Shown here in pieces: positions 1-12,548 of a stretch of DNA of 12,548 bases. The DNA lies in IMG/VR virus record IMGVR_UViG_2778261640_000001, positions 1 to 12,548 of that record. One strand, 5' to 3'. This DNA is from a virus (taxonomy: Duplodnaviria > Heunggongvirae > Uroviricota > Caudoviricetes). The notes under the pieces are model-generated. The model had not been told where the DNA came from. It did no database searches and was given only the letters and a program-made list of their open reading frames with translations. A program made the translations under genes and the position numbers. Position 1 is the stretch's first letter. Every line of letters begins with the position of its first letter.

Positions 1-411
1 ATGCCTGCCCCCGTCGTCCTGATCCTTGCGGCCGGGCGTGGAGAGCGCTTTCTCGCCTCCGGGGGAAATACCCATAAGTGTATCGGCTGGCGTCAGTCCC
101 CGGAGGTTGCGCCTTATCGCTGGCCATTTGAAGAAAACGGGAGAACTTTCGACCTTGCGATTGAACCGCAGATTACGACTAATGATCTGCGTCTGATGTT
201 GAGGCTGACTCTTGCCGGCGGAGGAATAACAATTGCCACTCAGGAAACTTTCAGGCCATATATTGAAAGCGGTAAGCTTGTATCGCTGCTTGATGACTTT
301 CTTCCACAATTTCCGGGCTTCTATCTGTATTTCCCACAGCGTCGCAATATTGCACCAAAGCTCCGCGCCCTGATTGACTACGTCAAAGAATGGCGGCAGC
401 AATTGGCTTAA
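1..411 (+). CDS. LysR-family transcriptional regulator, C-terminal part (5' end outside window); probably host flank
   Basis: ORF runs from the window edge to TAA at 409-411. From about residue 40 the translation reads like a LysR effector-binding domain C-terminus (RWPFEENGRTF, NDLRLMLRLTLAGGGITIATQETF, IESGKLVSLLDDF, FYLYFPQRRNIAPKLRALIDYVKEW). The first 40 residues are less typical. Confidence 0.55.
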   Translation: MPAPVVLILAAGRGERFLASGGNTHKCIGWRQSPEVAPYRWPFEENGRTFDLAIEPQITTNDLRLMLRLTLAGGGITIATQETFRPYIESGKLVSLLDDFLPQFPGFYLYFPQRRNIAPKLRALIDYVKEWRQQLA

Positions 412-671: not shown

Positions 672-975
672 GAAAAAAATTTTTTTTCGAAAGAACTGTT
701 CACACTGTTCACCTTTCTTTTTTCTCCTTTTATTTCAGTATGATAGGTGGTGAATAATGGGTGAAGGGTGAACATTCGATTCTTCACCTCCGGCATTCTG
801 CCGGTGTGACTCATACCGGTGATTAATCCCCCGTACTAAAAATCGCACAGGGAGAAAAAAGTTTTTTTTGATTTGATTGTTCACACTGTTCACCTTTCGT
901 TTTTCTCTTTTAATTTCAGTGTGATAACGGGTGAATATACGGTGAAGGGTGAACAGTGGATTGTTCACCTTCGGG
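672..975. repeat. crr: crr-like cis replication region: two ~120-bp direct repeats (672-792 and 852-975) separated by ~60 bp, each carrying TGTTCACC / GGTGAACA octamers
   Basis: Hand alignment shows the two copies nearly identical (ctgttcacactgttcacctttc ... atttcagt.tgata ... ggtgaagggtgaaca ... ttcacct). This matches the recalled P4 crr layout and sits immediately downstream of the alpha gene. Confidence 0.75.
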
Positions 976-988
976 GGATTCAGGGATG

Positions 989-1012
989 AAAAAAGACCGG
1001 CAGATGCCGGTC
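989..1012 (-). terminator. Rho-independent terminator of the leftward (alpha) operon
   Basis: On the minus strand an 8-bp inverted repeat GACCGGCA/TGCCGGTC (995-1012) is followed by six T (989-994), 17 nt after the alpha stop codon. Confidence 0.65.
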
Positions 1013-1028
1013 AGATGAGTCATGAGGG

Positions 1029-3362
1029 TCAGGTTGTTGCAGGGTCGTCACATTTTGGCAGCCAGTCGCCGTAGCTTTCCTCTTTCAGCGTCAGGTTGGT
1101 CTGTATCCCCTGTTTGGTATGGCGCTTCTCGTAATTCAGCCCGTATTCCTTCAGCATCACCGGCAGCCCCAGCCCGAACATTTTCAGACTGAGTACATTC
1201 CGGTAGCCGTTTGCCTCCATGTAGGCCAGATAGGCGTGATAGAGGTATTTACGGTAGTTACGCGGGATGATACTGGCGTTCCCCATATACATGCCGCTGG
1301 TCTGCGGCAGGGTTTCCAGATAGCCGATAAAATCAAACGTCGGGTCGGCATCCCGTTTGATGTTCAGTGCCTCGTCTGAGTTCTGCTGGGACTGAAGCAG
1401 TGACCGGGCGAGCATCGGGTCGCTGAACTTCTGCATCAGGTGACGCACGATGACCGCCAGCTCGCGGGTGATTTTGTCCTTAAGCTGCGGGTCGCGCTCC
1501 TGCGGGGCTATCTGTTCCGGGAAGTGAATAATCACCCGCCGGCGTGACACGCCGCCGCTGCGGTCGGTGAAGCGCATCGGGTTATTGTTGACGGCCAGAA
1601 TCACCGCCGGGATATGCGTGGAGTACGCATCCCGGTATTTCGGGTCAACGGACACCGCATCGCCGCCGGTGATGGCCTTGAGTCCGGCTCCGTCGCCGCT
1701 CCATTTTTCCTGGTCCGGCAGGCGTATCAGTGAGAAGCCAGTTAACGCGGCACGTTCACGCGGGGATTCCAGCGTCTCGATGGTGGCCGACGTGGCGTTA
1801 TCCTCCCCGGCCAGCAGGGTGGCTATTTCGGCCATGATACTTTTGCCGCTGCCGCCGGGACCGGTCACCTCCAGAAAGAGCTGCCAGTCGTAGCGGTTTG
1901 CCAGCACCATAAACAGTGCGGCCAGAATCACGTCGCGTTTTTCCGCACGACCACCGGCGGCACGGTCAAGCCAGCGCCAGAACGCGGGAGCGTGGGTTTC
2001 CAGCGTTTCCCCTTCCACCGGCGGGGTGAAATCCACATCGCACAGGGTGCGCATCCAGTGTGACGGACTGTGCGGGTGGAACGAGCCGTTCTGCGTGTCG
2101 AGCACGCCGTTACGAAAGCCAATCAGGCGGCGGGAGGGGGCTTCCTGCTGCGGAATAATCAGCTTCAGGGTGTCCACCACGGAGGCCACCTTCCCGGAGG
2201 AGAACGGCGCGCGCAGCCGCTGAAACAGCCCGGCCACATCCCGGGCAAAGTCCTGTGGTGGCAGCACCTTCCAGACACCATTTTCATAGCGGGACAGAAG
2301 CTGGCCGTTGGCATCGACCGCGAGCGCCTCGCCGTAATGCTCATAGATACGCATGGCCTTTTCGCTGGTACTCATGGCGGAAAACTCCGCTTCGCTCATG
2401 GTGTCGAACGGGCTTTCAGCCGGTGGCCGGATGGCATCATAAATGGCCTTACGGGTGGCTTCCCCGCCGTACTGCGTGAAGGCATCATTCCAGTCACCGA
2501 AGACCGGCGGCAGGGCAACAACACCTTCACACGCATCTGCGGCTGCGGCGGCTTTTGTCTGGCCGTCACCGCTGAGGTCACGGTCAGCAGCAAGGACAAT
2601 CTGACAGGCCGGATGCTTCTGCCGGGCAAGGCTGGCCAGAGAAAGGAGGTTCACGGAAGAAAGCGCCACCATCACCGTTTCACCGGTCAGGTGATGTACG
2701 GTAAGTGCGGTCGCGTATCCCTCCGCTATCCACAGACGTTTTCCGGCCTGATTCTGTCCTTCAAGGGTGTGACAGGTGCCCCTGACCTGTCCGCCTTTCA
2801 GGGTGCGCTTACGGCCGTCAGCACTGATTAACTGAAGGTTAACCAGTTCGCCGCTGTCGTCATACAGTGGCACCACAAGGTCACCGGCGCGCCAGCTCAC
2901 GCCACCGGCTCTGTGTGTGCCGGTCAGCATCCGGCATTCCCGGCCGGGAAAGCCCTTGCGGGTCAGGTAGGCGTTACCGGTTCCGGGACGGGTTTTCGCC
3001 ATCAGGGTTTGTGCCAGTGCGGCGGCGTTCTTCCGGGCGGCTTCTGTTTCAGCACCGGCGGCAGCCGTCACTGCCGGGTCAGCCGGGGGCAGACTGCCGG
3101 TCACGGCAGCCACCTTTGTGGCCGCGTCGGACGGGGAAACACCAAACACCTTTTCAACCAGTTTCAGGCCGTCACCGGCACCACACTGATTGCAGTACCA
3201 GGTGCCGCGCCCCTCCCTGTCATCAAAACGGAAGCGGTCACTCCCGCCACAGACCGGACAGGGCTGATGACGGTTTTTCAGCACCTGAATCCCCAGCGCC
3301 GGGAGAATACGCGGCCAGTGACCGAGCGCATGGCTGACGGTGGCGGTTACGTTCATTTTCAT
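1029..3362 (-). CDS. alpha: P4 alpha-type primase-helicase / origin-binding replication protein
   Basis: 777-aa ORF. N-terminal zinc-ribbon primase signature (CPVCGGSDRFRFDD ... WYCNQCG), a Toprim-like acidic stretch (LAADRDLSGDGQ), Walker A GPGGSGKS and a long C-terminal domain. AGGAG sits 9 nt upstream of the ATG. Length equals recalled P4 alpha. Confidence 0.9.
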   Translation of the reverse strand: MKMNVTATVSHALGHWPRILPALGIQVLKNRHQPCPVCGGSDRFRFDDREGRGTWYCNQCGAGDGLKLVEKVFGVSPSDAATKVAAVTGSLPPADPAVTAAAGAETEAARKNAAALAQTLMAKTRPGTGNAYLTRKGFPGRECRMLTGTHRAGGVSWRAGDLVVPLYDDSGELVNLQLISADGRKRTLKGGQVRGTCHTLEGQNQAGKRLWIAEGYATALTVHHLTGETVMVALSSVNLLSLASLARQKHPACQIVLAADRDLSGDGQTKAAAAADACEGVVALPPVFGDWNDAFTQYGGEATRKAIYDAIRPPAESPFDTMSEAEFSAMSTSEKAMRIYEHYGEALAVDANGQLLSRYENGVWKVLPPQDFARDVAGLFQRLRAPFSSGKVASVVDTLKLIIPQQEAPSRRLIGFRNGVLDTQNGSFHPHSPSHWMRTLCDVDFTPPVEGETLETHAPAFWRWLDRAAGGRAEKRDVILAALFMVLANRYDWQLFLEVTGPGGSGKSIMAEIATLLAGEDNATSATIETLESPRERAALTGFSLIRLPDQEKWSGDGAGLKAITGGDAVSVDPKYRDAYSTHIPAVILAVNNNPMRFTDRSGGVSRRRVIIHFPEQIAPQERDPQLKDKITRELAVIVRHLMQKFSDPMLARSLLQSQQNSDEALNIKRDADPTFDFIGYLETLPQTSGMYMGNASIIPRNYRKYLYHAYLAYMEANGYRNVLSLKMFGLGLPVMLKEYGLNYEKRHTKQGIQTNLTLKEESYGDWLPKCDDPATT

Positions 3363-3376
3363 GGTGTTGTTCTCCT

Positions 3377-3697
3377 TCAGTGCAGTACCGGCGCTTTTAT
3401 GTGACGGGCACAGAGTTCATCCATCACAACCAGCCCGAGAAAGGACAGCGACGGCGCGGCCTTCAGGGGGCCGGATTCCATTAAATCTTCCAGCAGGGCA
3501 CAGGCTATCTGACGCCCTTTTTCCTCACCGTGCTGGCGCAGATAAAAGCCTTCCAGCTCAGCGGCGATGGCCGCCTCCAGTGATTCAAGGGTGAGATGCG
3601 GGTAGCGGTGCTGACGTTCGCACACGGTCAGCCAGGCACAGGCGACAGCACGACGGTAAAGGGCTGCGCGTAAGACGGGCGGTAAGGGTGTTTTCAT
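3377..3697 (-). CDS. cnr: Cnr-like copy-number regulator (P4 orf106 equivalent)
   Basis: 106-aa ORF immediately upstream of alpha in the same operon, with GGGAGG 7 nt before the ATG. Position and length match recalled P4 cnr. Confidence 0.7.
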
Positions 3698-3832
3698 TTG
3701 CTTTCCTCCCTGTGACAGATGACTGCATTCCGTGCCGGTTGCATTAACTGATAAGGCATATCTGCGTCTCCTGAAGACGTGCGTATCCCTGCGCGAATAC
3801 GCACATTTAATTTTTCGGGGGTCGTTTTTTAA

Positions 3833-4288
3833 TTACAGATAATTGCGGTAACTGTTATCCGGGGTGGTTTCCGGGTCAGGCTCCATGCGGGGAATTTCCC
3901 GCCATTCCCGCGCCACCGGTGCCGCCCGGCTGACCGGAACAGGGGCCTGCGGGTAAATATCCAGATATTTTTCCCGCCATTTCTGTAATTCCGGGTCTCC
4001 GGCCATTTCTTTCAGTACCGCATGCCGGTTTACGGGGCTGCGTTTAAACAGGTCAGGACGGTCACAGGTAAATTCCCGCAGAAAACGCCCCAGCGGGATG
4101 TCTGTGGTGCGCCCGTCAGCGAGGATACGCACAAGGATACTGAATTTACGGCGGTACGGGTTCCAGACAATGTCCGGGCAGCGGTACGGCATTTCCCACG
4201 GAATACCGTCTTCCAGAATGCCGACCACGGCCACATCGGGAAAACCGGCAGAACGGTAAATCTCACCGGGCTGGGGAAAATCAAACAT
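3833..4288 (-). CDS. P4 orf151-like protein, function unknown
   Basis: 151-aa ORF with GGGGAGA upstream of the ATG. Its ATG overlaps the last codons of the upstream epsilon-like ORF, suggesting translational coupling. Length and position match P4 orf151. Confidence 0.65.
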   Translation of the reverse strand: MFDFPQPGEIYRSAGFPDVAVVGILEDGIPWEMPYRCPDIVWNPYRRKFSILVRILADGRTTDIPLGRFLREFTCDRPDLFKRSPVNRHAVLKEMAGDPELQKWREKYLDIYPQAPVPVSRAAPVAREWREIPRMEPDPETTPDNSYRNYL

Positions 4289-4568
4289 GCGTCCTGTCTC
4301 CCCGGTCTTTCTGCTGGGCGAGAAAATCGCGGCACAGGCCTTTGGCTTTCAGCTCATTCAGCACAAAATCAATATCTTCATTCAGGTAGCTGAAAATATG
4401 CGGAATGTAGAGCTGATGCAGGCCGGAGAGTTCACGGTGAATCAAATCACCCCCAACAAACTGGGATACGGCGCTGGCGCGGTTGAGCTTATGGTAAGCC
4501 TCAATGCTGAGGTGTTCACGGGCGTCATGACGCGCTGAGACGGTCTGAGGGGCTTTTTTATTACGCAC
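4281..4568 (-). CDS. epsilon: epsilon-like protein (P4 antirepressor position), 95 aa from a GTG start
   Basis: GTG at 4568-4566 is preceded by GGTGGTGGAGGTG and overlaps the kil stop. The track's longer 147-aa version would overlap kil out of frame and lacks a ribosome-binding site. Confidence 0.55.
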
Positions 4569-4758
4569 GGGACACCTCCACCACCGGCAGACGGGCAGCA
4601 AGGGAGAGCACATAGTCACGGACAAGGGAACGGCGGGCGCTGCGTTCATCACCGGCGACGGTGCGAAGCATACAGATACGGGGATGACGGTCTGCGCGAC
4701 GGACAGCCGCAAACACAAAGACAAATTCAGGGTGTGAGGGGGTAAGGGTTGTAGCCAT
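4561..4758 (-). CDS. kil: Kil-like 65-aa peptide, first translated gene downstream of PLE
   Basis: ATG at 4758-4756 is preceded by GGAGG at an 8-nt spacing and gives exactly 65 aa ([12 protein letters not shown]...VVEVSRA) to the TAA at 4563-4561. This is the 3' part of the longer eta frame. Confidence 0.6.
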
Positions 4759-5160
4759 GATGGCAGCCTCCGTTAGATAGCAGGTTACGCTATCGCCGGA
4801 GTTCTCACGCTCAATGGCGATAGCCCAGACGGGGGTGAGAATACCGGCTCTAACGGATACCGGCCAGCCCGGAGGCTGCCCCGCCTGAGCTACCATTGAC
4901 TCTGCGGCATAATGAGCGGACGCGGGCAGGATGCACGGAATGCCATCTGCACGACTGACCACACACCACACCATAATCTGGCGCTCTGTGGCGTTGATTG
5001 CGACACAAAAAAAGACGCATGGCGCGTCATATGTCGCCGTTAGATTGCTCGGGTTCTCACGCCCGGCTGCCGATTTTGCGGCAGCGGAAAAACTATATCC
5101 GCAAATGCCGGAAAAAGGCAAGCCAGAAAAAGGGACTTTTTGCAGAGCGGGCATCATCAT
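4561..5160 (-). CDS. eta: eta-like ORF (about 199 aa), same frame as kil, starting upstream of PLE and spanning the cI/seq region
   Basis: The in-frame ATGATGATG at 5160-5152 overlaps the vis stop. Starting at 5160 gives 199 aa. The frame stays open across seqA, the seqB region and seqC. The track's upstream start at 5205 lies inside vis. Confidence 0.4.
4770..4810 (-). promoter_or_regulatory. seqC-like target, complementary to seqB; overlaps the kil ribosome-binding site
   Basis: Minus strand reads gcgtgagaactccggcgatagcgtaacctgctatctaacgg. Its ends (gtgagaa ... tctaacgg) are complementary to the seqB candidate. Confidence 0.55.
4812..4900 (-). ncRNA. cI: CI-RNA-like immunity RNA; boundaries approximate, seqB core at 4835-4856
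   Basis: Minus-strand ccgttagagccggtattctcac (4856-4835) is complementary to both flanking elements. Exact ends cannot be set from sequence alone. Confidence 0.35.
5037..5062 (-). promoter_or_regulatory. seqA-like target, complementary to seqB, in the PLE leader
   Basis: Minus strand reads gcgtgagaacccgagcaatctaacgg, sharing gtgagaa and tctaacgg with seqC, both complementary to seqB. Confidence 0.55.
5092..5121 (-). promoter_or_regulatory. PLE-like sigma70 promoter of the leftward operon
   Basis: Minus strand -35 TTGCCT (5121-5116), 18-nt spacer, -10 TATAGT (5097-5092). The start would lie about 25 nt upstream of seqA. Confidence 0.5.
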
Positions 5161-5423
5161 GCGTCGTACCCCCGTTTGCGTCCGGCAATGCGCCCGGCCA
5201 TCCATGCGGTGACTTCTGAGTGCAGCCAGGCCACATTTTTACCGCCAAGACTCACCTGCGGCGGAAATTCCCCCTTACGGATGAGTTCATAGATGGTCGA
5301 GCGTGACAGGCCGCACAGGTGCATCACTTCCGGCAGACGTAAAAAACGCTCCTGCGTGATGTCCGGCAGCGGCATCAGTGGCGTCACAGGGGCGGGAGAC
5401 GGGGAAGAAAAAACAGCTTGCAT
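5157..5423 (-). CDS. vis: Vis-like AlpA-family helix-turn-helix regulator / excision factor
   Basis: 88-aa ORF with an AlpA-type motif ([44 protein letters not shown]). GAGG sits 8 nt upstream of the ATG. Length and position match P4 vis. Confidence 0.8.
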
Positions 5424-5525
5424 CGGGCTACCTCGTTAATGTCCATACAGCACCGGATAAGTCCGTCCGGCTTCGGGTAGCGCTTTATTTTGTGAATATT
5501 TTCAGCAGACGCAACAGGGGGGATT

Positions 5526-5543
5526 TGTTCCGGCAGCCTTACA
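5526..5543. promoter_or_regulatory. TGT-N12-ACA dyad, an Ogr/Delta-type activator site, upstream of vis (PLL-like late promoter)
   Basis: TGT (5526-5528), 12 nt, ACA (5541-5543), centred about 110 bp upstream of the vis ATG. Confidence 0.45.
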
Positions 5544-5570
5544 ATGCTTGTGTGTTTTTTGTTCATCTCC

Positions 5571-5600
5571 ACTTAAAGTCATTTAAAGCCACTTAAAGCA
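5571..5600. repeat. Three tandem 10-bp repeats (acttaaagtc / atttaaagcc / acttaaagca)
   Basis: Read directly between the PLL-side dyad and the ori iterons. Function unknown. Confidence 0.5.
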
Positions 5601-5702
5601 ATTCGTAATTTTTATAGTGAAATACAAATCGTTTTTTCTTATTCATTCCCGGCGAATTAATAAAAACAAACAGTAATAAACAGCACAAAAAGCCCATCAA
5701 CG

Positions 5703-5807
5703 GGTGAACAGTGGTGAACAGACGGTGAACAGTCATTACTGCGATTGTTCACCATTTAACTTACTGTATTACTTATCTTTTTTCTTATGGTGAACAGAGG
5801 TGAACAG
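5703..5807. other. ori: ori-like replication origin: six TGTTCACC-type iterons in direct and inverted orientation
   Basis: GGTGAACAG at 5703, 5713, 5724, 5789 and 5799, plus inverted TGTTCACC at 5746, the same octamer as in crr. Flanked by AAACAAACAGTAA direct repeats (about 5665 and 5821). Lies about 4.9 kb from crr. Confidence 0.7.
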
Positions 5808-5885
5808 TAAAATATAAAAAAACAAACAGTAAGCCGGTTTTTCCTGCGACCTTTTCCTGGCTTGCCGGTGTGAGGATGAGTCTCC

Positions 5886-5903
5886 TGTGTCAGGGCTGGC
5901 ACA
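5886..5903. promoter_or_regulatory. TGT-N12-ACA dyad, an Ogr/Delta-type activator site, of a Psid-like late promoter
   Basis: TGT (5886-5888), gtcagggctggc, ACA (5901-5903), centred about 80 bp upstream of the sid ATG. Confidence 0.55.
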
Positions 5904-5974
5904 TCTGCAATGCGTCGTGTTGTTGTCCGGTGTACGTCACAATTTTCTCAACCTGAAGTGACGAGGAGCCGAAA

Positions 5975-6709
5975 ATGTCTGACAACACCATCCCTGAATA
6001 TCTGCAATCCGCGCTGGCACAACTGGAAAAGGCCAGAGCCGCCCATCTTGAGAACGCCCGTCTGATGGATGAGACCGTCACGGCCATTGAACGGGCAGAG
6101 CAGGAAAAAAATGCGCTGGCGCAGGCCGACGGAAACGACGCTGACGACTGGCGCACGGCCTTTCGTGCAGCCGGTGGTGTCCTGAGCGACGAGCTGAAAC
6201 AGCGCCACATTGAGCGCGTGGCACGCCGGGAGCTGGTACAGGAATATGACAATCTGGCCGTGGTGCTGAATTTTGAACGCGAACGCCTGAAAGGGGCGTG
6301 TGACAGCACGGCCACCGCCTACCGGAAGGCACATCATCACCTTCTGAGTCTGTATGCAGAGCATGAGCTGGAACACGCCCTGAATGAAACCTGTGAGGCG
6401 CTTGTCCGGGCAATGCATCTGAGCATTCTGGTACAGGAAAATCCGCTCGCCAACACCACCGGCCATCAGGGCTACGTCGCACCGGAAAAGGCTGTCATGC
6501 AGCAGGTGAAATCATCGCTGGAACAGAAAATTAAACAGATGCAAATCAGCCTCACCGGCGAGCCGGTTCTCCGGCTGACCGGACTGTCAGCGGCAACACT
6601 CCCGCACATGGATTATGAGGTGGCAGGCACACCGGCACAGCGCAAGGTGTGGCAGGACAAAATAGACCAGCAGGGTGCAGAGCTTAAGGCCAGAGGACTG
6701 CTGTCATGA
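5975..6709 (+). CDS. sid: Sid-like external capsid size-determination scaffold
   Basis: 244-aa ORF, coiled-coil-like and rich in A/E/L/Q. GAGGAG sits 7 nt before the ATG. Length and position match P4 sid. Confidence 0.8.
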   Translation: MSDNTIPEYLQSALAQLEKARAAHLENARLMDETVTAIERAEQEKNALAQADGNDADDWRTAFRAAGGVLSDELKQRHIERVARRELVQEYDNLAVVLNFERERLKGACDSTATAYRKAHHHLLSLYAEHELEHALNETCEALVRAMHLSILVQENPLANTTGHQGYVAPEKAVMQQVKSSLEQKIKQMQISLTGEPVLRLTGLSAATLPHMDYEVAGTPAQRKVWQDKIDQQGAELKARGLLS

Positions 6710-7206
6710 TTTACTGCCCGTCGTGTGGACATGTTGCTCACACTCGTCGCGCACATTTCATGGACGATGGCACCAAGATAATGATTGCACAGTGCCGGAA
6801 TATTTATTGCTCTGCGACATTTGAAGCGAGTGAAAGCTTTTTCTCTGACAGTAAAGATTCAGGAATGGAATACATTTCAGGCAAACAGAGATACCGCGAT
6901 TCACTGACTTCTGCCTCCGGCAGTATGAAACGCCCGAAAAGAATGCTTGTTACCGGATATTGTTGTCGGAGATGTAAAGGCCTTGCACTGTCAAGAACAT
7001 CGCGGCGTCTGTCTCAGGAAGTCACCGAGCGTTTTTATGTGTGCACGGATCCGGGCTGTGGTCTGGTGTTTAAAACGCTTCAGACCATCAACCGTTTCAT
7101 TGTCCGCCCGGTCACACCGGACGAACTGGCAGAAAGCCTGCATGAAAAACAGGAACTGCCGCCAGTACGGTTAAAAACACAATCATATTCGCTGCGTCTG
7201 GAATGA
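6706..7206 (+). CDS. delta: Delta-like late-gene transactivator with two Ogr-type zinc-finger modules
   Basis: 166-aa ORF whose ATG overlaps the sid stop (ATGA). Two cysteine modules: CPSCGHVAH...CRNIYCSATF and CRRCKGLAL...CTDPGCGLVF. Confidence 0.85.
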   Translation: MIYCPSCGHVAHTRRAHFMDDGTKIMIAQCRNIYCSATFEASESFFSDSKDSGMEYISGKQRYRDSLTSASGSMKRPKRMLVTGYCCRRCKGLALSRTSRRLSQEVTERFYVCTDPGCGLVFKTLQTINRFIVRPVTPDELAESLHEKQELPPVRLKTQSYSLRLE

Positions 7207-7279
7207 GGGCTGTCGGTTAACACCGGCCGTCGCCGCACACCGTATTTTTATTCTTCAGCATGATGAGAAAGAGATAACG

Positions 7280-7852
7280 ATGGAAAGCACAGCCTTACAG
7301 CAGGCCTTTGACACCTGTCAGAATAACAAAGCAGCATGGCTGCAACGCAAAAATGAGCTGGCAGCGGCCGAACAGGAATACCTGCGGCTTCTGTCAGGAG
7401 AAGGCAGAAACGTCAGTCGCCTGGACGAATTACGCAATATTATCGAAGTCAGAAAATGGCAGGTGAATCAGGCCGCCGGTCGTTATATTCGTTCGCATGA
7501 AGCCGTTCAGCACATCAGCATCCGCGACCGGCTGAATGATTTTATGCAGCAGCACGGCACAGCACTGGCGGCGGCACTGGCACCGGAGCTGATGGGCTAC
7601 AGTGAGCTGACGGTCATTGCCCGAAACTGTGCCATTCAGCGTGCCACAGATGCCCTGCGTGAAGCCCTTCTGTCCTGGCTTGCGAAGGGGGAAAAAATTA
7701 ATTATTCCGCACAGGATAGCGACATTTTAACGACCATCGGATTCAGGCCTGACGCGGCTTCGGTGGATGACAGCCGTGAAAAATTCACCCCTGCGCAGAA
7801 CATGATTTTTTCGCGTAAAAGTGCGCAACTGGCATCACGTCAGTCTGTGTAA
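7280..7852 (+). CDS. psu: Psu-like polarity suppression / capsid decoration protein
   Basis: 190-aa ORF, last gene of the sid-delta-psu operon. Length matches P4 psu. Confidence 0.8.
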   Translation: MESTALQQAFDTCQNNKAAWLQRKNELAAAEQEYLRLLSGEGRNVSRLDELRNIIEVRKWQVNQAAGRYIRSHEAVQHISIRDRLNDFMQQHGTALAAALAPELMGYSELTVIARNCAIQRATDALREALLSWLAKGEKINYSAQDSDILTTIGFRPDAASVDDSREKFTPAQNMIFSRKSAQLASRQSV

Positions 7853-7888
7853 AATTCCCCGAAAATCCGCCTGTTTTTACTGAAAAAA

Positions 7889-7916
7889 GCCATGCATCGA
7901 TAAGGTGCATGGCTTT
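7889..7916 (+). terminator. Hairpin terminator candidate downstream of psu
   Basis: GCCATGCA (7889-7896), 9-nt loop, TGCATGGC (7906-7913), then TTTG. The T tract is short, so possibly a weak terminator. Confidence 0.45.
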
Positions 7917-8016
7917 GCATGCGTTTCCCTGCCTCATTTTCTGCAGACCGCGCCATTCCCGGCGCAGCCTGAGCGTGTCAGTACAACTGCATTAAAACCG
8001 CCCCACAAAGCGGGCG

Positions 8017-8035
8017 GGCGTGGCGGGGAGAGCAT
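8017..8035. other. cos: cos-like site (putative P2/P4-type cohesive end)
   Basis: GGCGTGGCGGGGAGAGCAT matches 16 of 19 positions of the P2/P4 cohesive end as I recall it (GGCGAGGCGGGGAAAGCAC, from memory). It lies between psu and the cargo, where P4 cos is expected. Confidence 0.4.
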
Positions 8036-8052
8036 TGCGCGCCAAGTAATTT

Positions 8053-9675
8053 TTAATTTATTTTTTTATAAAGGCCATCTAACCCAGGTTTCAAAAGAAA
8101 TTGAGATGGAGCCCCGTTCTTAAGATCACCTGAACCATTATACCGTTTCGTAGAATGCATTAGCATAATGCCTTTTCTTGCTCGTGTAATTCCTACGTAA
8201 TGAAGATTTATGCATTGCTGTTCATTTTCGAATACAACATCATAGCTTCCTTCTATGAAAACTCTTTTAGGCAAAATCCAATCATACAGATCCAAATGAA
8301 AAACAAAGTCAAACTCAAGACCTTTAGACTTATGTAACGTCATTATTTGTACTTCATCACTTCTAACATCCAAATAATTATTTTGCATCCTCGGAGTAAC
8401 TAATATCTCTGAAAGAGCGGACTTATGATGCTGCTCGATTTCAGTCCCTAAAAGAGTTACTACAATTTTATTTATTACGTCAATAAGAAAGGCATCTGTA
8501 ACACTTCTAACCTGCTTAATAGCCTTACGGATACGAGTAGCCTCGCTCCTTTTGACACTGCTTCCCAAAACCCCCTCCAAAATAGACTGAGCAGTTTTAT
8601 TTAAGTTATACCTGTAACATAATAAATCATTAACAAGACCAGAAACCTTACCACCAGCCTTTGTTAAATCATTATCCAAATAAGCCCTATTAGAAACAAC
8701 TAAATTATCAGAAACTAGCTCCGCGCAAGCATTGCTTCTTACCAATATAGCAATCTCCTTATTATCAGATATTGAAAATTTATTTTTTACATTATCAAGA
8801 ATTTCACCAATCCATTTAGCTATATCAATTTGATTGCCATCAACACATTTTCTATAAACAAAAATCTCATCACACGGAGCTAGTTGACATTCAAAATCTT
8901 TAATTCTATTGGCGTAATTTACTATAGATGGGTGACATCTGTGATTTACTGTAATTTCCTTATGACAGAAACCACTATCATTCATGAAATCTTTTAGTGA
9001 ATCCGAACTGCGGTGAGAATACAAATAAATTGATTGATCCAAATCACCAACGATAATAAGAGGCATCCCTAGCGTTGGTATGAACTTGAAAACCTGATGA
9101 GTAAAATAACCGGTATCCTGATACTCATCGACAAAAAAACCAATATACTTTGCCATTAAATACCGCTGACAAGAATATGATGTTCTAACTATATAAAAAG
9201 CCAAGTGAGGAAGGAAGTCTAAAATCAACATCCCCTTTAAATAAATATCCCTCAGAGAACCCATGCCCTCAAATGAAGTATTAGAATAAAAATCCACTCG
9301 GTCAAAGTACTTATTTGTCTTATCTTTTAATTCTTGAGAAAGATCTATATACTTTACTACTTCGAGAGCGCTTTCGTTTCTGCCCCATACTTGCCTTACA
9401 AAAGGTAATATTATTTCGTTAATGAAAAACTTATCAATAGTACCAAAGAAGCTAGAATTTAACTCTGCTCCCAATTTTCTACATCTGGATTTTAGCTCCT
9501 CGCTGGATTTATTCGTATATGATAACGCAACAACTCCCTGATAATCCTTGGAATGGGATAAACAGGCAGCAATCTTATGGACGAGTATTGTTGTTTTACC
9601 ACTTCCTGGGCATGCAGTTATAACCAGATTACCTTCGTAATCAATTGCATCTAACTGTTCCTTAGTTAGCTTCAT
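8053..9675 (-). CDS. gajB: UvrD/PcrA/Rep-like SF1 helicase, GajB-like partner of a class 2 OLD nuclease
   Basis: 540-aa ORF with all SF1 helicase motifs read by eye: I ACPGSGKTT, Ia ALSYTNKSSEEL, II FVDEYQDT, III IIVGDLDQSIY, IV VNHRCHPSIVNYAN, V IMTLHKSKGLEFDFVF, VI YVGITRARKG. ATGA overlap with the upstream gene and GAGGTGA ribosome-binding site. AT-rich. Confidence 0.75.
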   Translation of the reverse strand: MKLTKEQLDAIDYEGNLVITACPGSGKTTILVHKIAACLSHSKDYQGVVALSYTNKSSEELKSRCRKLGAELNSSFFGTIDKFFINEIILPFVRQVWGRNESALEVVKYIDLSQELKDKTNKYFDRVDFYSNTSFEGMGSLRDIYLKGMLILDFLPHLAFYIVRTSYSCQRYLMAKYIGFFVDEYQDTGYFTHQVFKFIPTLGMPLIIVGDLDQSIYLYSHRSSDSLKDFMNDSGFCHKEITVNHRCHPSIVNYANRIKDFECQLAPCDEIFVYRKCVDGNQIDIAKWIGEILDNVKNKFSISDNKEIAILVRSNACAELVSDNLVVSNRAYLDNDLTKAGGKVSGLVNDLLCYRYNLNKTAQSILEGVLGSSVKRSEATRIRKAIKQVRSVTDAFLIDVINKIVVTLLGTEIEQHHKSALSEILVTPRMQNNYLDVRSDEVQIMTLHKSKGLEFDFVFHLDLYDWILPKRVFIEGSYDVVFENEQQCINLHYVGITRARKGIMLMHSTKRYNGSGDLKNGAPSQFLLKPGLDGLYKKIN

Positions 9676-11372
9676 AATTCACCTCTAGCAATTTTCAGTG
9701 CATGTATTAGAGGTCTGGCTATATCTTTGCTCTTCAGTTCAGTTAAAAAAGCTTTTTTCTCTTTAATTAACTCACGCATACGTATAGCTTTTTTTCCTCT
9801 CAAATAATCAGCGGCATCATCTAGATTATCCTTACTTGCATAATCAAGAACATGCTTCGAAAAGTCATTAGCAAGATCTCCTTCAAGATCAAAAAAAGAT
9901 ATATAAACGCCGTTAGGATTTATTATTGGTGAAATGGTTCCCCACTTAGTATGCAAAGCTTTACTATCTATAGGAATACTTGAGTTTGGTTCTTTATTCT
10001 CTCCACACAGTGCTAACGCCCTATTTACACCAGCATATTGCCATTCATTCTTATGAGGTACTTTTGAAGCATCATTGTCTGTTCTTACGATCCAATTAAT
10101 ATTTAGAGCTGTTAATATTTTTCTATAAACTTCAAATTGGATACCATCAACAGAAAGAATGCTGATGTTATAATAATCAAGATCAATACTTAATGCTTTT
10201 GCTAATTCAGTGTAAAAAATCACCTCAGATGGTCCCTCGACCAAAAAAACCACGTTAGCAAAAAATGCCTCAGCAGGAATAATACTCATCCGGTAGCCCA
10301 TTCCATCCCATGCAGAGCTAATACAATCAGAACATCCATTACTTGCGGCTAGAGTCTCTCCATCATCATAGTATAGTTTTATGATTGAATCAGGTTTAAA
10401 ATTCACTGCAATTTGGGGTGAGTGGCTTGTAACGATTGCTTGGCCTGGAAGTTTATCGATTAAATAGGCCGCCAATTTTCTTTGCTGGTGAGGAAATAGA
10501 TGTGCTTCCGGTTCCTCTATACAATAGATCACTACTTCACTTTCAACATCATGCTCGCGAACACTTTTTGCTTTCCATAACGCAAGAAGGATTTGGTTAT
10601 TAAACCCATCGCCACCAAGCATTAGTTTCTTCCCATTTGTATTCGCACTTAATTCTAATTTCTCTATAAACTGGTCAATCCCTATTGCACCAGTATCAAG
10701 TTGAACAGTTAATCTATCATGAGTATAGGATAACTTTCTAAGTTCCTCGTTAAGCTCTTCTGTTGCTGATGCAACATAACTTATTCCTTTAACTTTTTCA
10801 TTTACTTCAGTAAGTAGCTTATTTAATTCAGTAAAAACCGCCCCATCATTTTCAGTATCCTTTTCACTACGAACTTCTTGCGCCAATCTTAAAAGATGCT
10901 TCTTTTCAATTTTAATGTATTTTTCAAGATCTCTTTGCGAATTTATATACCTTAGACTTAAACACTTTAAGTAAAATCTATTAGGAACCTCATCAAAATT
11001 GTTATGTTCATGACTAAGTAATATCTTGTAATCCATAGTTAATGATGAAGCAAGATACTTAATGTATGTTTCCCCTTCATCGCTAACATACCCTCCTAAT
11101 TTAGATATTACAGCATCTTCACTAACATCTGTAAACTTGATAGTGATTTCTATATTTTCAACCTGTTCACCTGTCGAATTTACATGAAAGTCATTGCTTT
11201 TTGGTTCTAGATCTAATTCAGATAAACTTTTATCAAGTAATAATCGAATGGCATATAATAGGTTGGTCTTTCCAACATCATTTGCACCTATAATCAAATT
11301 AGTTTCATTAAAATTAATAACAGCATCACAGTAATTCCTGAATCCTTTAATATAAACAGTTTCAATTCTCAT
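9672..11372 (-). CDS. gajA: OLD-family ABC-ATPase plus Toprim nuclease, GajA-like
   Basis: 566-aa ORF. Walker A GANDVGKTN near the N-terminus, Walker B / H-loop (VVIYCIEEPEAHLFP ... IVTSHSPQ), C-terminal Toprim motifs (VVFLVEGPSEV, WIVRTDNDAS). The ATG directly follows the int stop (TAAATG). AT-rich. Confidence 0.75.
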   Translation of the reverse strand: MRIETVYIKGFRNYCDAVINFNETNLIIGANDVGKTNLLYAIRLLLDKSLSELDLEPKSNDFHVNSTGEQVENIEITIKFTDVSEDAVISKLGGYVSDEGETYIKYLASSLTMDYKILLSHEHNNFDEVPNRFYLKCLSLRYINSQRDLEKYIKIEKKHLLRLAQEVRSEKDTENDGAVFTELNKLLTEVNEKVKGISYVASATEELNEELRKLSYTHDRLTVQLDTGAIGIDQFIEKLELSANTNGKKLMLGGDGFNNQILLALWKAKSVREHDVESEVVIYCIEEPEAHLFPHQQRKLAAYLIDKLPGQAIVTSHSPQIAVNFKPDSIIKLYYDDGETLAASNGCSDCISSAWDGMGYRMSIIPAEAFFANVVFLVEGPSEVIFYTELAKALSIDLDYYNISILSVDGIQFEVYRKILTALNINWIVRTDNDASKVPHKNEWQYAGVNRALALCGENKEPNSSIPIDSKALHTKWGTISPIINPNGVYISFFDLEGDLANDFSKHVLDYASKDNLDDAADYLRGKKAIRMRELIKEKKAFLTELKSKDIARPLIHALKIARGEL

Positions 11373-12548
11373 TTACATTTTCCTTAAAAATAACGTTGAA
11401 GAGAAAAAGTTCAACATTTTCCTTCTTTCTTCAATGAATGTTGCATGATTATATGTACCGCGAATTCTATTACTATCAACGTGAGCGAGCTGTAATTCAA
11501 TATATTGAGAATTAAAGCCAGCATCATGTAAAATAGTTGACATCATATGCCTAAATCCATGACCTGTAAGCCTGCCACCGTATCCAAGTCGCTTTATAAG
11601 CTGATTGATAGCGGCCTCACTCATTGGCTTACTCGGATCATTTCGCCCAGGAAAAACATAACGATAGTTGCCTGTCATTGTCTTGAGTTCATTGAGTAAA
11701 TCTAACGCCTGAGTAGACAATGGCACAAGATGCGGCCTGCGCATTTTCATCCTTTCAGCAGGAATTTCCCAAATAGCGTTATCCAGATCAAATTCTTGCC
11801 ATAATGCCGCGCGTAATTCGATGGTTCTCACGCCCGTAATCATCAGTAATTTCGTTGCTATCTGGACAATTTTACTCCCGGTGTAACTCTCTAAGGCACG
11901 CAGAAATTCGGGTATCTCATCAGCTTTTAAGAACGGGAAATGATTGGATTGATGCACTTCGAGAGCGCTGGAGAGATCCGCAGCAGGATTGTACTCCGCC
12001 CTACCTGTTGCAATTGCGTAGCGAAACACCTCGGAGCAACGCTGCCGCACTTTACGCATTTTCTCCAACGCACCACGTTTCTCAATTTTACGCAGTACGT
12101 TCAGCAGCTCTAGCGGTTTAATCTCTCCCACAGGCCTTGTTCCAACATAAGGAAAAATGTCGTTCTTAAACGCTTCCATGATGTCTGATGCGTATCCAGC
12201 TGACCATTTAGCAGATTTAAGTTGATGCCACTCTCTGGCGATCTTTTCGAAGGCGTTCTCTGACTCTGTTTGCAGAGCCAGCTTTTGCTCTTTTCGAACC
12301 TCACTAGGGTTCTTTCCTTCTGCCACAAGTTTTCGAGCTTCATCACGACGGGAACGAGCATCGGCAAGGGTGATCGTTGGGTAAACGCCAAGCGAGATCA
12401 TCTTGGGTTTACCGGCGTAGCGATAGCGGAACCGCCAGCTCTTGCTTCCATTAGGTTCTATAAGCAATGACAAGCCTTGCCCATCCCCAAGCGTATAGGG
12501 TTTATCTTCAGGCTTAGCGCGGCGAATCTGCATATCGTTTAAAGGCAT
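11373..12548 (-). CDS. int: P4-type tyrosine integrase; ATG at the window edge
   Basis: 391-aa ORF. N-terminus MPLNDMQIRRAKPEDKPY is typical of P4-family integrases. The C-terminal catalytic region carries HGFRHMMST and LAHVDSNRIRGTYNHA with the likely catalytic tyrosine. Confidence 0.85.
   Translation of the reverse strand: MPLNDMQIRRAKPEDKPYTLGDGQGLSLLIEPNGSKSWRFRYRYAGKPKMISLGVYPTITLADARSRRDEARKLVAEGKNPSEVRKEQKLALQTESENAFEKIAREWHQLKSAKWSAGYASDIMEAFKNDIFPYVGTRPVGEIKPLELLNVLRKIEKRGALEKMRKVRQRCSEVFRYAIATGRAEYNPAADLSSALEVHQSNHFPFLKADEIPEFLRALESYTGSKIVQIATKLLMITGVRTIELRAALWQEFDLDNAIWEIPAERMKMRRPHLVPLSTQALDLLNELKTMTGNYRYVFPGRNDPSKPMSEAAINQLIKRLGYGGRLTGHGFRHMMSTILHDAGFNSQYIELQLAHVDSNRIRGTYNHATFIEERRKMLNFFSSTLFLRKM

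Follow-up and report, generated by a model that had tools for sequence, protein, structure and literature searches.

A six-iteron cluster in a P4-type satellite prophage is almost certainly its replication origin, ori1

The window, that is, the whole 12,548-nucleotide stretch of DNA that we analyzed, contains a prophage, with a host gene fragment at the left end and an integrase gene at the right end. Full-length open reading frames were found for alpha (777 aa), cnr, vis, sid, delta, psu, and int. The replication genes alpha and cnr are located between the cis replication region (crr) and a cluster of short repeats, and this cluster has the leftward operon (PLL, vis) on one side and Psid-sid on the other, as does ori1 in satellite phage P4. 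Positions 674–8016 of the window were 98.0% identical to positions 4291–11624 of the P4 record X51522, and the P4 segment ends at the right cos end. The features of the locus, together with the conservation of those in the origin region, are listed in Table 1.

Table 1. Features of the window, with the conservation of origin-region features in the closer and the distant group of P4-like origins (fraction of loci matching the window base)
Feature	Positions	Strand	Closer	Distant	Remarks
LysR-family host gene fragment	1–411				Left end; LysR substrate-binding domain
crr 120-bp repeat 1	674–793	+			X05623 'direct repeat 1 cis replication region (crr)'; exact iterons at 706, 767
crr 120-bp repeat 2	855–974	+			Repeat alignment to crr of X05623; exact iterons at 887, 948, 962
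alpha	1029–3362	-			777 aa; primase, SF3 helicase, C-terminal winged-helix origin-binding domain
cnr (ORF106)	3377–3697	-			ORF 106 of X05623; upstream of alpha; Pfam DUF5375 full length, E = 3e-63
vis/ORF88	5157–5423	-			Flanks ori on PLL side
Three 10-bp 'ori type 2 repeats'	5569–5598	+			CACTTAAAGT CATTTAAAGC CACTTAAAGC; identical to X51522 9176–9205
Left copy of 15-bp direct repeat	5662–5676	+	0.54	0.55	Exact AAAAACAAACAGTAA; A-rich flank, poorly conserved
Other spacers	5678–5702, 5732–5745		0.27–0.42	0.29–0.35	
Type I iteron 1	5703–5710	-	0.97	0.93	Exact TGTTCACC (GGTGAACA on + strand); X51522 9310–9317 'ori type 1 repeat'
Type I iteron 2	5713–5720	-	0.93	0.92	Exact TGTTCACC; coincides with X51522 'ori type 1 repeat'
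Type I iteron 3	5724–5731	-	0.97	0.81	Exact TGTTCACC; coincides with X51522 'ori type 1 repeat'
Type I iteron 4 (inverted copy)	5746–5753	+	0.98	0.90	Exact TGTTCACC; coincides with X51522 'ori type 1 repeat'
AT-rich spacer between iterons 4 and 5	5754–5788		0.82	0.65	35 bp, 83% A+T
Type I iteron 5	5789–5796	-	0.93	0.88	Exact TGTTCACC; coincides with X51522 'ori type 1 repeat'
Type I iteron 6	5799–5806	-	0.81	0.80	Exact TGTTCACC; coincides with X51522 'ori type 1 repeat'
All iterons, range			0.81–0.98	0.80–0.93	
Right copy of 15-bp direct repeat	5818–5832	+	0.85	0.35	Exact AAAAACAAACAGTAA; in A-rich box beside iteron 6
sid	5975–6709	+			Flanks ori on Psid side
gajB (Gabija)	8053–9675				540 aa; E = 3e-224
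gajA (Gabija)	9672–11372				566 aa; E = 4e-261
Tyrosine integrase	11373–12548				Right end

The octamer TGTTCACC was found 12 times across the window against 0.31 copies expected, and none of 200 shuffles contained at least 12. Six exact copies are packed into 104 bp (5703–5806), five in the same orientation and one inverted, exactly the arrangement that the initial annotation had proposed for a span of about 105 bp. Five of the six extend to GGTGAACAG, and iterons 3 and 4 together form an 11-bp inverted repeat. The iterons start at 0, 10, 21, 43, 86, and 96 bp, corresponding to offsets of 0.95, 2.0, 4.1, 8.2, and 9.1 helical turns; because these values are close to whole turns, the iterons should lie on one face of the helix. 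Within the ori region, duplex stability over 30 bp is lowest in the AT-rich spacer between iterons 4 and 5 (-30.2 kcal/mol, versus a window mean of -40.6 kcal/mol), and this spacer is probably the DNA-unwinding element at which melting takes place. Tocchetti et al. in 1999 reportedly described a minimal P4 ori1 of 123 bp, comprising six type I iterons and an AT-rich region of 35 bp, a length that the spacer shares.

Five further exact octamers lie in crr, 4.7–5.0 kb from the cluster, in keeping with the earlier suggestion that the octamer recurs there about 4.9 kb away. They are accompanied by one-mismatch copies at 697, 749, and 781 in repeat 1 and at 878 and 930 in repeat 2. A degenerate copy, CTTCACC, is common to the window and X05623, and all crr iterons match the P4 sequence. 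The twelfth exact octamer (11164–11171) is inside gajA, remote from all other copies. We considered it as a third alpha site and rejected it: it is a lone copy in non-P4 cargo, consistent with chance. A full-text literature search for the octamer returned unrelated primer matches only, and the term 'type I iterons' gave no match.

Alignment of positions 5560–5975 with X51522 9167–9582 gave 97.8% identity over 416 bp (coverage 100%, E = 0). At the homologous bases, the annotation of X51522 has 'origin of DNA replication', with 'ori type 1 repeat' entered six times and 'ori type 2 repeat' three times. All six octamers of the cluster fall base for base on the type 1 features and are unchanged; the nine substitutions in the alignment leave both the iterons and the type 2 repeats intact. 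The alpha protein is identical to P4 alpha at 766 of 776 residues (99%) and carries the Pfam domains Zn_Ribbon_Prim, Toprim, D5_N, and Pox_D5. Its residues 671–770 match PDB 1ka8, the solved winged-helix origin-binding domain of P4 (E = 1e-63), and residues 661–774 contain no substitution relative to P4. We take ORF106 to be cnr, the copy-number regulator of the ori1 replicon in the P4 literature. In common with the P4 replicon (X51522, X05623, X02534), the element has six type I iterons unchanged in sequence and spacing, all three type 2 repeats, a crr with two 120-bp repeats, a nearly identical alpha, and cnr. An origin-like cluster working with crr and alpha, as the initial annotation had it, is borne out by the P4 record, which annotates a replication origin at the homologous bases, and by the near-identity of crr, alpha, and cnr. 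Judged by these sequence comparisons, the cluster is almost certainly the ori (ori1) of a P4-type satellite prophage of E. coli, forming one half of a bipartite origin of which crr is the other half. No sequence evidence speaks against this identification. For P4, the map and annotation of the origin, type I iterons, crr, and alpha go back to the 1980s and 1990s, and in this respect the locus is already known and offers nothing new.

By analogy with P4, the C-terminal winged-helix domain of alpha would bind the TGTTCACC octamers at both ori and crr, and alpha bound at the two sites could loop out the intervening DNA and so join them. The 35-bp AT-rich spacer would then melt. With alpha serving as its own helicase and primase, bidirectional theta replication would start without host DnaA, DnaB/C, or DnaG, and Cnr would hold the copy number down. 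For this prophage, we infer on the basis of near-identity that binding, looping, melting, and priming proceed as biochemical and genetic work on P4 describes. Specific binding of alpha to the octamer, and alpha-dependent replication needing both ori and crr, were reportedly demonstrated for P4 by Ziegelin et al. in 1993; the studies of Ziegelin and Lanka in 1995 and of Tocchetti et al. in 1998 are said to be among the sources of the P4 replication mechanism. Looping, the action of Cnr, and independence of host factors belong to the P4 literature.

Iteron-controlled plasmid origins, such as the R6K gamma ori with pi, P1 oriR with RepA, and RK2 oriV with TrfA, resemble the P4 origin in general design. 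They have helically phased short repeats alongside an AT-rich unwinding element, a winged-helix initiator encoded by the plasmid, and a second iteron cluster elsewhere that influences initiation. In P4, however, the second cluster (crr) is needed in cis for initiation and is not merely inhibitory, the initiator is itself helicase and primase, no DnaA boxes are involved, and the iterons are 8 bp long rather than 17–22 bp. The Gram-negative PICI satellites, which carry pri-rep-ori modules, differ in using another initiator family and other iteron sequences; their origin is a single site, with no separate crr described.

To place the cluster among related origins, we used 80 loci with relatives of alpha (57–99% identical), one genome per species. 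For conservation, 49 P4-like origins of other Enterobacterales were aligned and the fraction of loci agreeing with the window base was taken; they were divided into a closer group of 32 loci (alpha 74–86% identical) and a distant group of 17 loci (alpha 57–70% identical). Counted from the opposite end (alpha on the + strand), the iterons follow the pattern 0/10/53(inverted)/75/86/96, and this pattern was found again in P4-like loci of Enterobacter, Citrobacter, Klebsiella, Raoultella, Kluyvera, Pantoea, Pectobacterium, Serratia, and other genera, with one mismatch in some octamers. In both groups, the iterons and the AT-rich spacer were matched more often than the other spacers (Table 1). A layout of six iterons with the AT-rich spacer is thus a stable signature of the whole P4-like family, as represented by the 49 elements compared, and this signature could aid origin annotation in thousands of P4-like satellites. 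In ten of the more distant P4-like loci (for example, in Pantoea and Erwinia), an exact TGTTCACC lies on the minus strand within alpha, some 1.77 kb into its coding sequence, at about 6764–6770 of those loci. This copy is absent from alpha of the window; it may reflect coincidence at the codon level or mark an alpha site inside the gene.

The element differs from P4 in being integrated, with a different integrase, and in its cargo: a complete Gabija system (8053–11372) follows cos in place of the P4 gop/beta/cII region. The position next to cos is a known defence hotspot of P4-like satellites (PMC9122126). A sister element in E. coli C325 (NZ_CP124819.1, 2342365–2356780), situated at tRNA-Thr beside proA, has a 100% identical ori and carries a HEPN-domain gene in the hotspot instead of Gabija; cargo has thus been exchanged on a shared origin and backbone. 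Alpha is frameshifted in this sister element, which lends some weight to the idea that the origin in the window is likewise a relic that has ceased to fire, within an immobile prophage undergoing decay. Here, however, all the reading frames named above are full length, and every ori and crr iteron equals the P4 sequence. Because all parts of the replicon are intact in the window, decay is not indicated, and we consider a relic improbable compared with a P4-type ori1 whose parts have been retained.

At the left end, positions 1–559 were 99.3% identical to the final 560 bp of phage record OP434518 (phi458), which is annotated there as 'tail assembly protein'. In E. coli C325, the flank matching the same positions is a chromosomal LysR-family regulator. 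OP434518 has probably taken in host DNA or been mislabeled at this end. Positions 560–673, between the host DNA and the start of P4 homology, form a very AT-rich junction in which the least stable 30 bp of the whole window begin (at 582); this junction is probably attL. No tRNA genes were found within the window.

The iteron cluster is flanked by an exact 15-bp direct repeat, AAAAACAAACAGTAA. Its 13-mer AAACAAACAGTAA occurs exactly twice, at 5664–5676 and 5820–5832. The bracketing 13-bp repeats that had been placed at about 5665 and 5821 are thus real, with positions one base off and an exact length of 15 bp. One substitution in ori accounts for the 15-bp left copy, which is 14 bp in P4. With mismatches allowed, the repeat extends to 19 matches in 22 (5655–5676 versus 5811–5832). 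A direct repeat of at least 13 bp appeared in none of 500 dinucleotide shuffles of the intergenic region, and the probability of a shared word of at least 13 bp between the two flanks was 0.0014. Both copies lie in A-rich DNA of low stability, and the nearest end of the left copy and the far end of the right copy are each 26 bp from the outer iterons. A length beyond chance, this placement, and the low stability would all suit a functional pair, whether bound by one host or phage protein that brackets and bends the origin or marking the boundaries of a mobile origin cassette.

Comparison with related elements argues against such a pair. When the left flank was compared with the right flank in each of the 49 other origins, the longest common word measured 5–11 bp (mode 6–7), equal to the shuffle null. 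The left copy varies by A to G and C to T changes, being AAAAACAAACAGTAG in P4 and strain MRSN346638 and AAAAATAAACAGTAA in O157 C1-057 and 21AH007, whereas the right copy is invariant in P4 and five E. coli relatives; the two do not co-vary. In four sampled E. coli elements (72–76% identity), detectable homology starts at query base 143–145, where iteron 1 begins, leaving out the left 15-mer. The 123-bp minimal ori1 reported for P4 could not hold either complete 15-mer, because the iterons take up 104 bp and each 15-mer ends at least 26 bp outside them. We also rejected the idea that insertion of an iteron cassette created the repeats by target-site duplication, since relatives without the left copy keep the full cassette and the right box. 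Because the repeat appears to be specific to the P4 lineage and is not kept as a pair in related origins, a functional pairing of the 15-mers is very unlikely. The right 15-mer is part of a moderately conserved A-rich box next to iteron 6, and the left one is an A-rich flank particular to the P4 lineage. This lineage-specific flank repeat of P4 should not be counted as part of the conserved origin.

We also considered the DNA between iteron 6 and Psid. A block at 5838–5868 with two TTTTCCTG repeats lies between ori and the Psid activator site and was 0.77 conserved in 32 related loci. Together, the columns of the A-rich box and this block were 0.77–0.85 conserved in the same loci (alpha 74–86% identical). 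The only hit of a terminator scan was the inverted repeat of iterons 3 and 4, which scored no better than shuffles. RNAalifold applied to 28 distinct sequences from iteron 6 to Psid gave essentially no consensus fold (-0.4 and -1.2 kcal/mol on the two strands) and no covariation, and we rejected an RNA structure or a terminator in this interval. We know of no described role for either the A-rich box or the block. Tentatively, and with considerable doubt, the box (~5814–5832) and the block may be proposed to form a cis element, not previously described, in the ori–Psid interval of the P4 family; a host nucleoid protein might bind or bend the DNA there, or the element might extend the origin in vivo. 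If this element (~5814–5868) is real, the left 15-mer would be a second copy gained in the P4 lineage only. The conserved box and block are the sole remaining novelty of the origin region.

Sites of the form TGT-N12-ACA, the Delta/Ogr activator type, are found on both sides of the origin, at 5526–5543 on the PLL side and at 5886–5903 and 5924–5941 on the Psid side; the window as a whole contains 6 against 2.4 expected, a mild enrichment. No sigma-70 promoter candidates were found in 5350–6050. The iteron cluster occupies the gap of about 340 bp between these activator sites in a promoter-rich intergenic region, as would an operator through which alpha or another regulator controls the divergent late promoters PLL and Psid, but we give hardly any credence to a mainly transcriptional array, since the octamer is also present in crr, downstream of alpha and without promoter context, the P4 record annotates the region as a replication origin, and helical phasing with an internal AT-rich element is a feature of origins. 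Beside its role as ori1, the array may have a secondary effect on transcription.

The type 2 repeats (5569–5601) are directly upstream of the Delta site of PLL. They contain TTAAAGNCA three times, at 5573, 5583, and 5593, a sequence that we take to be the P2 Cox-box consensus. At the same spot, related E. coli elements carry other triple repeats; for example, DETEC-E601 and SW07091 have GGCAAAC three times, and O157 C1-057 has a GAAGG-type set. This variation suggests that the spot is a swappable helper-recognition module and not a part of the origin.
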